Under the pieces are notes generated by a model. It was not told the origin of the DNA. It worked only from the letters and a program-made list of their open reading frames with translations, and searched no databases. A stretch of 64,000 bases of DNA from a virus, in the IMG/VR virus record IMGVR_UViG_3300046171_000185, positions 2,998-66,997 of that record; one strand, written 5' to 3'. A program made the position numbers and the translations under genes. This document shows, piece after piece, positions 57,524 through 60,817 of this stretch. The first letter of the stretch is position 1. Each line of letters begins with the position of its first letter.

Positions 57524-58374
57524 TGAAGTCTCATAAGACTCCTTTGAGGTATCCTGGTGGCAAGTCGCGTGCTTGCACTAAGATGGATCAATATCTCTTG
57601 AAGGTATCTGACTGTAGAGAATACAGAGAACCATTTCTGGGTGGTGGTAGCGTTGCAATTTATATTACTAAGAAATATCCTAAACTAGATATTTGGGTTA
57701 ATGATTTGTATGAACCTCTTTATAATTTTTGGAGAGTTCTTCAAGATGATGGTAATGCTTTATATGAAACATTATGTGATTTAAAATCTAGACATCCAGA
57801 ACCAGAATCTGCAAAAGAACTATTCTTAAAATCAAAGGAGTATTTAAATGACGAATCCAATAATGACTCTTTACAGCGTGCTGTCAGTTTTTATACTATC
57901 AATAAGTGTTCTTTTTCTGGTCTCACCGAGTCATCCTCCTTCAGCAAACAAGCAAGTGACTCAAACTTCTCAATGCGAGGAATCGAAAAACTCCCAGGAT
58001 ACACAAAGATAATTGAGAACTGGAAAATTACTAACTGGTCATATGAATCGCTTCTAACTGATCGTAGAGATGTGTTTACATATCTGGATCCTCCATACGA
58101 TATTAAAGATAATCTTTATGGGAAGAAAGGGAGTATGCACAATGGATTTAACCATGATGATTTTGCTTCCGATTGTGATAGGTACATTGGTGATCAACTT
58201 GTATCTTACAACTCTTCCAATCTGGTTAAAGAAAGATTTGACGGATGGAATGCAGGCGAGTTTGATTTGACTTACACTATGCGGTCTGTAGGTGAGTATA
58301 TGCGAGAGCAAAAAGATCGTAAGGAACTTTTACTTTATAATTATGGAATTGAAGGATTGGCTACATTCAATTAA
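57520..58374 (+). CDS. dam: DNA adenine methyltransferase (Dam/D12 class)
   Basis: LRYPGGKS, EPFLGGGSV, VND and catalytic YLDPPY. Confidence 0.9.
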   Translation: MMKSHKTPLRYPGGKSRACTKMDQYLLKVSDCREYREPFLGGGSVAIYITKKYPKLDIWVNDLYEPLYNFWRVLQDDGNALYETLCDLKSRHPEPESAKELFLKSKEYLNDESNNDSLQRAVSFYTINKCSFSGLTESSSFSKQASDSNFSMRGIEKLPGYTKIIENWKITNWSYESLLTDRRDVFTYLDPPYDIKDNLYGKKGSMHNGFNHDDFASDCDRYIGDQLVSYNSSNLVKERFDGWNAGEFDLTYTMRSVGEYMREQKDRKELLLYNYGIEGLATFN

Positions 58375-58711
58375 TTTTAGCAAAGAGGATTTACGTGAGG
58401 ACATTAGGTCTTACCCTCCATATATCGTTAATCGTTGTCTGTCTGGGCACCTTGATTGCGTCATGTTCGCTAATGAAATGAATAAGTATAACTTTCTTGA
58501 TAAAGATATGCAATATTCTTTTTATCTAAATAGTCTGAGGAAACGAAAGAGGTTCTCTCCTTGGCTCCGAAAGGATAAAGTCCAGGATTTAGAATGTGTC
58601 AAACAATACTATGGTTATAGTAATGAGAAGGCATCTCAGGCTCTGAAAATTCTGACAAACGAACAGATTAACTTTATTAAACAACGACTTGATGTTGGAG
58701 GAATGAAATGA
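58343..58711 (+). CDS. gp62: Clamp loader small subunit gp62
   Basis: YPPYIVNRCLS, ANEMN, LRKRKRFSPW and YYGYSNEKA; lies upstream of regA. Confidence 0.9.
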   Translation: MELKDWLHSINFSKEDLREDIRSYPPYIVNRCLSGHLDCVMFANEMNKYNFLDKDMQYSFYLNSLRKRKRFSPWLRKDKVQDLECVKQYYGYSNEKASQALKILTNEQINFIKQRLDVGGMK

Positions 58712-59149
58712 CTACTGTGGAACCTACAGTTGAGTGGTCTCAGGACCAAATGGTGGAAGTACTTCTTAATGAACCTGATGACTTTTTAAAGGTTCGTGAG
58801 ACATTGACAAGAATTGGAGTTGCATCACGCAAGGAAAAGAAACTCTATCAGTCTTGTCACATCCTGCATAAGCAAGGAAGATATTTTATCGTTCACTTTC
58901 AAAGAGTTGTTGCCCTGGATGGTAAGAGAGCAAATCTTACACTGAATGATGTACAACGTCGCAATCGTATCACACGCCTCCTTGCTGACTGGGGACTTAT
59001 CTCAGTCGGTAAAGGAAGATACTGTTGCAGACATTGCACCTCTGAATCAAATCAAAGTTCTTGCATATCAGGATAAAGGTGATTGGATTCTTGAGCAGAA
59101 GTATAATATTGGTAAGAAGACTAAACCCCAAGAAGAAGTCAATAAATAA
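58708..59149 (+). CDS. regA: Translational repressor RegA (frameshifted)
   Basis: PDDFLKVRETLTRIGVAS, LYQSCHILHKQGRYFIVHF, RRNRI...LLADWGL and C-terminal KYNIG. Confidence 0.93.
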
Positions 59150-59229
59150 GACTGAGACCTTTCGTGCGGTCTCTACGAAAGTCGGAACACCCTATAAAGA
59201 GGTTCGGTTATTACCGTTCCTCTTTTTTT
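59141..59229 (+). ncRNA. Candidate ~75-nt late small RNA with its own promoter and terminator
   Basis: AATAAATA at 59141-59148; hairpin GAGACC/GGTCTC whose loop TTTCGT is complementary to downstream ACGAAA; terminator AAAGAGG..CCTCTTTTTTT at 59196-59229. Confidence 0.55.
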
Positions 59230-59237
59230 GTTTATGT

Positions 59238-59306
59238 TATAAATATATCGGATGCCTTCGGGGTCCACAAAACACAAACTCGCTTTTAAAGGAGCTAAGA
59301 ATCATG
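59238..59306 (+). promoter_or_regulatory. hsp20 leader: late promoter, UUCG hairpin and ROSE-like SD-masking hairpin
   Basis: TATAAATA at 59238-59245; GGATGCC-TTCG-GGGTCC at 59250-59266; CTCGCTT (59279-59285) can pair with AAGGAG (59289-59294). Confidence 0.6.
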
Positions 59307-59740
59307 GGAAACCTTACAAGGTATACTGCTGCAGATCTTGCCTGTGCTATTAGATAAAATTTCTAAAAACTAGCATTGGTATGCATGATTACCTAAATAG
59401 AGTGTTCGACCTACATGAGACACAGACAAACTACCCTCCCTATAACTTAATTGAGGTTAGTAATGTAGAGTCGCTACTAGAAATTGCACTTGCAGGATTT
59501 AAGAAGAAAGAAGTAAATGTCTACACACAAGACGGAAAACTCTTCATTGAAGGGCAGAAAGAAGACAAAGAAACAGGAACAAACTACATCCATAGAGGAA
59601 TGGCTCAACGATCTTTCACCAGATCTTGGACCCTCAGTGATGAGACGGAAGTTAGATCAGTTGAATTTGAGGATGGGCTCTTAACAGTGGTTCTTGGTAG
59701 AATTGTTCCAGAATATCACAAGCGTAAGGACTGGTTCTAA
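59304..59740 (+). CDS. hsp20: Small heat-shock protein (Hsp20/IbpA family; 5' frameshifts)
   Basis: MGNLTRYTAADL..., NYPPYNLI, LEIALAGF, YIHRGMAQRSFTRSW and FEDGLL. Confidence 0.92.
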
Positions 59741-59763
59741 ATAGAATTGAATATCGTCGCCGC

Positions 59764-59804
59764 GAGGGGCAACTGGCAAAATCCAGTTGACGCCCCTCTT
59801 TTTT
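59764..59804 (+). terminator. Long terminator hairpin after hsp20
   Basis: GAGGGGC-AACTGG-caaaat-CCAGTT-gac-GCCCCTC followed by TTTTTT. Confidence 0.8.
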
Positions 59805-59815
59805 CTTGATAGAAT
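59787..59815 (+). promoter_or_regulatory. Sigma70-type promoter (TTGACG-17-TAGAAT) overlapping the terminator
   Basis: The -35 lies in the hairpin 3' arm and the -10 is at 59810-59815; it points into the gp43 operon. Confidence 0.65.
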
Positions 59816-59834
59816 AGAGGAAAATACAAATCTT

Positions 59835-60014
59835 ATGACTAAAAAGCAATTTGTAAGTAATAAGGGTGAGACTTGGGAGTGGGAAGAAACCCCTGAAACA
59901 GAAGCAGCATTGAAAGCGTTGCGTGAAACTGAAAAGAGGAACGCAACCGAACGTCTTCATTCAGATATCCGCGAACTGGAACTGAAAGCACCTGATTATG
60001 GAGTTGGTAAATGA
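59835..60014 (+). CDS. Small hypothetical protein
   Basis: MTKKQFVSNKGETWEWEET...; GAGG lies upstream. Confidence 0.6.
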   Translation: MTKKQFVSNKGETWEWEETPETEAALKALRETEKRNATERLHSDIRELELKAPDYGVGK

Positions 60015-60385
60015 CTATTAAATTTATTGTTTTAAAATCTGGAGAACAACTTATCTCTGATATTAAAGAGATGGCTGTCGGGGAAGAAGATGATCAAAAA
60101 GTTGTTGGTTACTTTCTTCACAGACCATGTATTGTTAAGATGAAAAATCCTGGAGTAATTGATCAGGAAAAAAGCAAAACTAAAGCAGGGTTTGAAGTAA
60201 CTTTGATTCCTTGGCTTTCTTTAACCCAAGATGAAGTTATTCCTATTCCCTCAGATTGGTTGGTGACTCTAGTAGAACCAGTTCCCCAACTTACACAAAT
60301 GTACACCGAAGATGTTTTAAATTATGGAAAAGACAATCAAAGCGATTCTGCTGACGAACAACCAGGTATTGGTATCACAAATTGA
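60011..60385 (+). CDS. Conserved hypothetical protein, Sm-like beta-barrel family
   Basis: IKFIVLKSGEQLISDIKE...HRPCIV...LIPWL...WLVTLVEP. Confidence 0.7.
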   Translation: MTIKFIVLKSGEQLISDIKEMAVGEEDDQKVVGYFLHRPCIVKMKNPGVIDQEKSKTKAGFEVTLIPWLSLTQDEVIPIPSDWLVTLVEPVPQLTQMYTEDVLNYGKDNQSDSADEQPGIGITN

Positions 60386-60584
60386 TGAGGTTGCTGCTTC
60401 AGTTCCTGGAGAACCAGATTGTAAACTGACCAATCCTTTTCTTCTAGTAGAAGGTGGTATGTTAGAATCTTGGATGATGGATGCAACCAGAGAAGATGTC
60501 TTTATGATTAGTTCCGACAAGATTCTGACTCTTGTAACGCCCACACCAACACTAGTAGAAAAATACGAGGACCTAACAAAGTAA
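60324..60584 (+). CDS. Conserved hypothetical protein, Sm-like beta-barrel family
   Basis: IKAILLTNNQVLVSQIDE...LTNPFLL...LESWM...KILTLVTP. Confidence 0.7.
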   Translation: MEKTIKAILLTNNQVLVSQIDEVAASVPGEPDCKLTNPFLLVEGGMLESWMMDATREDVFMISSDKILTLVTPTPTLVEKYEDLTK

Positions 60585-60817
60585 TGGCACTATCTAAAAG
60601 CACCCTAGATCATTTACTTGAGGCAAAGTCTCATATCAGGGCAGCGATTAAGTCCGCTGCAGTAAATGAAAAACCTATGGTTGTAAAAAATCTTTCTGAT
60701 ATCCTAATGAATATGGAGCAGACAGAGAAATTTGATGAGATCATGGATATGATTGATAACCGTGACCCTGGTAGTAACGGTATGTTTGGTTCTTTTTTTA
60801 ATGATGATAACGAATGA
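60584..60817 (+). CDS. Hypothetical helical protein
   Basis: 77-aa ORF coupled to both neighbours. Confidence 0.65.
   Translation: MALSKSTLDHLLEAKSHIRAAIKSAAVNEKPMVVKNLSDILMNMEQTEKFDEIMDMIDNRDPGSNGMFGSFFNDDNE

Follow-up and report, generated by a model that had tools for sequence, protein, structure and literature searches.

What lies in the short spacer between regA and hsp20 of T4-like cyanophages, and does it amount to a gene of its own? The question is raised by a stretch of 64,000 nucleotides of viral DNA (hereafter the window), which covers positions 2,998 to 66,997 of the IMG/VR record IMGVR_UViG_3300046171_000185, a 66,997-base record from a T4-like cyanomyovirus whose nearest named relative over the stretch is the Synechococcus phage S-SM2 (75% identity). 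An initial annotation had proposed that this spacer encodes a stand-alone structured small RNA (sRNA). The computational analysis reported here leads us to regard the unit, with a probability of roughly 0.6, as a self-contained, autonomous small non-coding RNA gene of T4-like cyanophages (Kyanoviridae and relatives) and, judging from its sequence, as a candidate new family of phage sRNAs. The stand-alone unit of the initial annotation finds support in the comparative data: its stems covary, its loop is invariant, it occurs once per genome and in several genomic contexts, and a promoter motif accompanies it; the transcript itself is predicted.

A covarying structure downstream of regA

The unit consists of a promoter motif, a 5′ hairpin (P1), a short single-stranded region and an intrinsic terminator, laid out in the window as follows.

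59141-59148, + strand: late-type promoter motif AATAAATA, overlapping the regA stop TAA at 59147-59149
59154-59173, + strand: hairpin P1 of 6 base pairs, with arms GAGACC (59154-59159) and GGTCTC (59168-59173)
59160-59167, + strand: P1 loop of 8 nucleotides, TTTCGTGC (also UUUCGUGC)
59174-59182, + strand: linker UACGAAAGU, which includes ACGAAA (59175-59180)
59183-59188, + strand: single-stranded motif CGGAAC, with GGAA invariant and the C before it nearly so
59196-59229, + strand: intrinsic terminator, with a hairpin at 59196-59225 followed by a U-tract (7 T) to 59229
59154-59229, + strand: predicted primary transcript of about 76 nucleotides, deduced from promoter spacing and terminator
59238-59245, + strand: second late-type motif TATAAATA, ahead of the hsp20 leader

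The signals on which the initial annotation relied are all found in these letters: the promoter-like motif across the regA stop, the GAGACC:GGTCTC hairpin, the terminator and a separate promoter motif ahead of hsp20. The 92-nucleotide stretch folds into P1 plus the terminator at -27.4 kcal/mol (z -3.54), which is better than 200 of 200 dinucleotide shuffles. P1 begins 6 nucleotides past the promoter motif, and its start coincides with the predicted 5′ end of the RNA. The terminator is a G+C-rich hairpin with conserved pairing, followed by an invariant T-run; a simple terminator scan missed it owing to mismatches inside the stem, and covariation supports it. From these limits, an RNA length of 58-78 nucleotides is predicted in 102 of 104 distinct homologues, with 76 as the mode. 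The same 104 sequences bear out the claim that no plausible open reading frame (ORF) follows the motif, as none is conserved in the unit: the sole frame within it starts at a GTG of the loop and gives peptides of 9-50 amino acids, whose unrelated tails led us to reject a small-peptide reading.

Conservation of the spacer was apparent from five named phages of different genera, whose regA-hsp20 spacers align throughout. A covariance model (R1), built from 17 gap-free sequences with a structure of two hairpins, was searched against the window, five named-phage loci and 80 IMG/VR loci chosen solely for encoding an Hsp20 relative. In these 86 sources it gave 51 + strand matches, distributed over 50 of them, at E≤0.001, the E-values of this model being rough; L020 and L023 came out with weak scores (E 0.76-0.99), although both have the exact loop sequence and CGGAA. 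Scanning IMG/VR with a pattern gave at least 119 stretches, with CGGAA in 63 of the 80 loci kept among the matches listed. Throughout the homologues, hardly any change is seen in the loop UUUCGUGCG or in the GGAA downstream of it, and when homologues were chosen only by the loop motif, there was no variation in the loop with its 3′ neighbour (TTTCGTGCG), in GGAA or in the TAAATA of the promoter motif. The GGAA lies 6-11 nucleotides 3′ of the P1 stem and occurs as CGGAA in 98 of 102 distinct sequences, as AGGAA in three and as TGGAA in one (the motif of P-TIM68 reads AGGAAC). The linker before it is variable, with TACGAAAGTC in 22, TTCAAAAGTC in 21, TACAAAAGTC in 14 and ACGCTACATAC in 10 of these 102 sequences, plus others.

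The stems behave very differently from the loop and GGAA, which are fixed in sequence. A plain MAFFT alignment misaligned P1, so covariation was counted on an alignment based on R1, with 41 distinct rows out of 51. Five of the six P1 pairs changed on both sides (98.3% of cells paired), as did 11 of the 12 terminator pairs (95.3%). The observed covariation score was reached by none of 500 shuffles, and sliding the partners by 1-3 columns made pairing fall from 90.6% to 42-59%. An alignment-free tally anchored on the loop, performed with the 102 distinct sequences, revealed at least eight different compensated P1 stems, among them GCGATC/GGTCGC, GAGACC/GGTCTC, GTCGC/GCGAC, GTGACC/GGTCAC, GAGTC/GACTC and GTCAC/GTGAC, and in other genomic contexts terminator hairpins of wholly different sequence replace the type seen in the window. 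Moreover, U.G occurs at one P1 pair in 22 distinct rows and G.U at each of three terminator pairs in 7-12 rows. The frequency of these wobble pairs indicates that the structure is that of an RNA of the + strand, and a minus-strand RNA was rejected on the same grounds.

No known family accounts for the unit. At the gathering threshold, Rfam gave no match anywhere in the window, and at E≤10 the best overlap within 58900-59500 was RatA on the minus strand, with 22.2 bits against a threshold of 49 (E 2.4). The element is undescribed in the full-text literature searched, the supplementary intergenic-transcript tables of cyanophage transcriptome papers lying outside that search. Neither is it on the list of cyanophage non-coding RNAs given in the available part of PMC9964418, which names CfrI, PhotoRC-II, wcaG, the glutamine riboswitch and manA. 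These are likewise small structured RNAs of the same phage group; they are cis-regulatory or antisense to specific genes, and no Rfam model fits the element.

Copy number and genomic context

Of 15 named complete cyanomyovirus genomes searched with R1, ten have exactly one copy, on the + strand (S-SM2, DSL-LC03, Sf-CH5, Bellamy, S-RIM32, S-T4, S-PRM1, S-CAM9, P-HM2 and P-TIM68), and in the other five, P-SSM2, S-SSM7, S-SKS1, S-SRM01 and S-SCSM1, no copy was found. Two IMG/VR genomes rated 99-100% complete hold one copy each; R1 also matches once in the whole 66,997-base record, and the window has one instance of the loop motif and one of the GGAA motif. A second R1 match in S-RIM32 (E 0.024) was dismissed, as inspection showed no loop motif. 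Five records without the element at the regA-hsp20 junction, which are 7-76% complete, held no copy elsewhere.

The usual site of the unit is between regA and hsp20, the latter being the downstream gene in 73 of 116 instances by a crude count. Other arrangements do occur. A 2OG-Fe(II) oxygenase gene stands between regA and the unit in S-CAM9; in P-HM2 the unit lies 3′ of gp32 and faces a convergent gene; the copy of P-TIM68 is far from regA, behind a hypothetical gene, the regA-hsp20 spacer of this phage holding a plain terminator only; and in several IMG/VR contigs it precedes glutaredoxin-like genes. Altogether, at least five different upstream genes and at least four genomic contexts are represented, with one copy per genome, and the conservation of the unit is independent of its neighbours. 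The initial annotation had also pointed to RegA as an RNA-binding protein; a link with RegA is not indicated, since the unit is also found away from its gene.

Some details of these loci deserve mention. In L136, L144 and L151 the element is placed between a gene ending in ...GxKxGxKYxF and a glutaredoxin-like gene (MNF.VYTR.GCPYC...), whose ribosome-binding site follows directly 3′ of the element's terminator; L113 and L157 have the same upstream gene with a different downstream ORF call. The regA-hsp20 junction is a hot spot of insertions, and genes have entered both before and after the unit, such as a 172-amino-acid gene 3′ of the element in L009. In L035 (485-569 and 971-1051) the element is interrupted by a gene, and what remains of it is a full copy, ending in a new terminator, and a 3′ half copy. 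In L006 and L083 the inserted DNA has no long ORF on the + strand and may be read in the opposite direction. Element-less relatives (L011, L026, L034, L037-L040, L043, L049, L051 and others) share a spacer, AACCGAATAAAAA, with a plain GC-rich terminator, about 100-170 nucleotides before hsp20 and also behind upstream genes other than regA. By its sequence, this spacer seems to derive from a deletion that also took away the promoter motif.

A host counterpart was sought with a 20-nucleotide degenerate P1 pattern, covering two stem variants only, in 185,579 species genomes, and none of the 23 matches was a bacterial copy of the unit. Of these matches, 21 have neither CGGAA nor a terminator and are due to chance in G+C-rich DNA; the remaining two belong to phage DNA, found once in a single-cell assembly and once in a metagenome-assembled genome (MAG). 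A complete element, with promoter motif, CGGAA and terminator, is held by L221 (CP070751.1, titled MAG: Thermoplasmata archaeon), where it probably derives from a cyanophage contig binned or joined into the MAG.

Promoter motif, predicted transcript and rival explanations

The promoter motif is conserved together with the structure. All 39 distinct homologues that were selected by the loop motif alone have TAAATA unchanged, and the P1 stem starts 3-6 nucleotides after it in 99 of 101 sequences. Where the upstream sequence is long enough, NTAAATA is found 100-260 nucleotides before the hsp20 start in 46 of 46 loci that have the element there, versus 2 of 34 that do not. S-SM2 and the window differ in the register at which the regA stop falls within the motif, and therefore the stop codon alone cannot explain the conservation of the motif. 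A T4 late promoter is a TATAAATA-like motif located about 6 nucleotides upstream of the start, with no -35 element. Combined with this spacing rule, a hairpin 3-6 nucleotides after the motif leads to the prediction that the RNA starts at the base of the hairpin. A like arrangement is seen in the hsp20 leader, where a hairpin follows TATAAATA six bases on. Over the window, MTAAATA occurs 26 times versus 41 expected, 25 of the 26 copies being on the + strand and 12 of these 25 lying 21-44 nucleotides before a crude ORF start, a pattern consistent with late-promoter use throughout the window's block. The late-promoter motif is named in PMC3014915 and PMC5931967.

Several observations weigh against an autonomous sRNA gene. 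The element is dispensable, as five of the 15 complete genomes have no copy. The unit always lies 0-6 nucleotides past the stop of a co-oriented ORF, and it is probably also part of the 3′ untranslated region (3′ UTR) of the upstream gene. The RNA data are contigs from four metatranscriptome runs (58300-60400), which are blind to ends, strand and levels; some of them run from regA into the element (58981-59187) or from the element into the hsp20 leader (59102-59278 and 59159-59277), which fits read-through or DNA carry-over. The covariation counts are inflated by an alignment fitted to the model and by many closely related sequences. Finally, no target was found: the complement of the loop occurs nowhere else in the window as an 8- or 9-mer, and GCACGAAA is present at control frequency in five complete phage genomes (24 matches, against 25 for the reversed control). 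The RNA core pairs with the hsp20 leader and with the start of gene 43 no better than shuffled sequences do (97 and 53 of 200 shuffles, respectively, were as good). A duplex with the regA start, matched by only 3 of 200 shuffles in the window, was rejected as it is not kept across 26 loci (mean z -0.59, six below -2).

Part of this evidence also suits the strongest of the alternatives, in which P1 and the terminator form a module that ends and stabilises the upstream mRNA, TAAATA being conserved as part of the block. The constant position behind a stop codon, the contigs that extend from regA into the element and the plain terminator retained at the same place by element-less relatives all agree with it. 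A generic 3′ stabiliser, however, should recur in a genome, whereas the unit is present once and behind at least five different upstream genes; termination does not need an invariant nine-nucleotide loop and GGAA; and the spacing between promoter motif and P1 stays fixed while the stop register shifts, the motif being lost when P1 is lost. We thus consider a purely 3′-UTR role unlikely, although it is the rival to be taken most seriously.

The next candidate is suggested by analogy with the operator of T4 gene 43, a hairpin plus ribosome-binding-site sequence that is bound by the DNA polymerase, with the loop sequence as the part kept between T4 and RB69 (PMC3014915). The T4 regA-43 spacer shows, by sequence and fold, a 5-bp stem, an 8-nucleotide loop and eight bases followed by AGGAAU. 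Operator and element therefore share a hairpin of 5-6 bp, an 8-nucleotide loop and a GGAA purine motif after 8-10 nucleotides; both stand just downstream of regA, and in both the loop is the part that is kept. On the other hand, the loop sequences are unrelated. The T4 GGAA is the Shine-Dalgarno sequence of gene 43, followed by its AUG, whereas in the element a terminator and no ORF follows; and the element, unlike the operator, has its own promoter and a varied genome position. Gene 43 of the window starts at 60814, 1.6 kb downstream, overlapping the previous ORF, and the element does not overlap its ribosome-binding site. The relation is one of resemblance, not membership. That the element would be an orphan operator, a descendant or analogue of the T4 hairpin-plus-GGAA operator now serving as a late decoy that titrates a replication-phase RNA-binding protein of the phage (gp43, gp32 or RegA, whose genes are its usual neighbours), is a speculative proposal with a small chance of being right.

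Lower still we place the possibility of a cassette of the PeSL kind, conserved as transcription punctuation and as a recombination site for gene shuffling, with a functionless RNA. PeSL cassettes and the element are both composite units of promoter, stem-loop and terminator at indel hot spots, with half copies beside insertions, and the full copy plus 3′ half copy of L035 resembles the degraded half PeSLs described near indels in PMC4122927. The same source gives PeSLs as multi-copy with early promoters. The element, by contrast, has a late-type motif and is a single copy in the ten named carriers among 15 genomes searched and in the two near-complete IMG/VR genomes; for cyanophage S-PM2, PMC4503421 reports few PeSL-like structures. 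Moreover, a covarying stem with a fixed loop across genera points to selection on an RNA surface and not on DNA homology, which makes this reading improbable.

Short RNAs of the StxS type offer another parallel, StxS being a short RNA from the late promoter of a Shiga-toxin phage with the terminator close behind (PMC7547250). As predicted for the element, such RNAs owe their shortness to a terminator closely behind a phage late promoter. They are by-products of Q antitermination ahead of a late operon, whereas the gene that follows the element has a separate promoter. To our knowledge, T4-like phages have no Q antitermination system. That the unit would act as an attenuator or 5′ leader, in the manner of a riboswitch or thermosensor, and control read-through into hsp20 is in our view very improbable. 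Its terminator lies just upstream of hsp20, the commonest downstream gene in the crude count; against this, every phage compared has a promoter of hsp20 itself between terminator and leader, other sequences freely take the place of the terminator, with no conserved anti-terminator pairing, and other downstream genes occur. The convergent next gene of P-HM2 contradicts the reading.

Least probable of all, and in our opinion hardly tenable, is the model of the initial annotation in which the loop bases UUUCGU pair with ACGAAA of the linker into a partial pseudoknot, a two-state switch or a dimer, perhaps mimicking a type III antitoxin. The six-nucleotide complementarity is real, being perfect in the window and in the 22 of 102 distinct homologues that carry the linker TACGAAAGTC, and four of the six positions are mostly pairable still. 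Its conservation is what fails: 73.5% of cells are paired and compensatory change is seen in none of the six pairs (against five of six in P1), with the central C:G kept in 9 and the U:A in 18 of 40 distinct rows, and linkers of 0-2 nucleotides are sterically too short for a fully paired pseudoknot, as the initial annotation itself noted. Since this helix is not conserved, there is no comparative basis for an H-type pseudoknot or a two-state switch built on it. Given the plain MAFFT alignment, RNAalifold chose only an invariant pairing of the loop UUUCG with CGGAA. Four of its five pairs never vary, hence no covariation signal is possible either way; the remaining G:C pair is disrupted by AGGAA in L093, L148 and P-TIM68 and by a loop G to U in L006, and undergoes a wobble-compatible change to TGGAA in L138. 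A loop-GGAA pseudoknot is, on these sequences, possible but unsupported. Type III antitoxins (ToxI-like) are tandem repeats processed by an adjacent ToxN-type endoribonuclease, with a conserved pseudoknot. None of these traits is present in the element, which has its loop and GGAA once each in the window, no tandem repeats, and regA and hsp20 in place of a toxin gene beside it.

The neighbouring hsp20 leader (59238-59310) shows features of its own. After the motif TATAAATA comes a 5′ hairpin, GGATGCC/GGGTCC, with covarying counterparts in relatives (GTACGCC/GGGTAC, GATTGCC/GGGATC and GAGCGCC/GGGTTC), and further on the Shine-Dalgarno AAGGAG is paired with CUC-G-CUU, one G being bulged out. By its sequence, the leader has the look of a ROSE-type RNA thermometer. 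The score of Rfam ROSE_3 on it is 19.5 bits (E 0.15), below the threshold of 43, and 'RNA thermometer' and 'cyanophage' came together in no paper among the matches listed by the literature search. The CTCGCTT stretch was read as a putative Pho box in S-PM2d in PMC10976474. In L052, L056, L057, L069 and L081 the leader has an extra hairpin of about 40 nucleotides between the promoter and the GGATGCC-type hairpin. Both regA and hsp20 are split over 2-3 frames in the window, with extra single bases at about 59007 (regA) and at about 59337 and 59371 (hsp20), and also at 58900-58909. Close relatives and contigs of other runs lack one base at each frame-break site, and these breaks are probably single-base errors of the record, not real pseudogenes.

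Proposed mode of action and meaning for T4-like phages

For an autonomous sRNA gene, the following mode of action can be proposed. A late-type promoter MTAAATA, of the T4 gp55 type, would fire about 6 nucleotides upstream of the hairpin, and the RNA would begin with a 5′-terminal stem-loop and end at its own intrinsic terminator after about 60-78 nucleotides, hairpin and terminator stabilising it at both ends. The P1 stem would need only to pair, while the loop UUUCGUGCG and the single-stranded GGAA(C) are fixed in sequence. From a variable stem with a fixed loop and GGAA, a recognition surface for a conserved partner is to be expected, and we infer that the two fixed parts together would form it and act in trans. 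Given that no RNA partner was found and that the architecture is operator-like, a protein is favoured. The likeliest partner would be a conserved phage or host protein, bound in an operator- or decoy-like manner; an equally conserved RNA, contacted through a kissing or seed interaction, is less likely.

T4-like cyanophages are among the most abundant marine viruses, and few of their non-coding RNAs are known. The element spans phages of Synechococcus and Prochlorococcus from many genera, and cultured carriers such as P-HM2, S-SM2, S-RIM32 and S-T4 make the family easily testable, its presence or absence among close relatives offering natural controls. Were the orphan-operator proposal true, the decoy would lift translational repression, or direct it elsewhere, in the late phase of infection, and the element would be a trans-acting, protein-sponge sRNA in a T4-like phage, encoded by a genome-mobile, single-copy gene. 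If expressed, it points to a conserved partner of the infection, which may be either a phage regulator of replication or translation or a universal component of the host.

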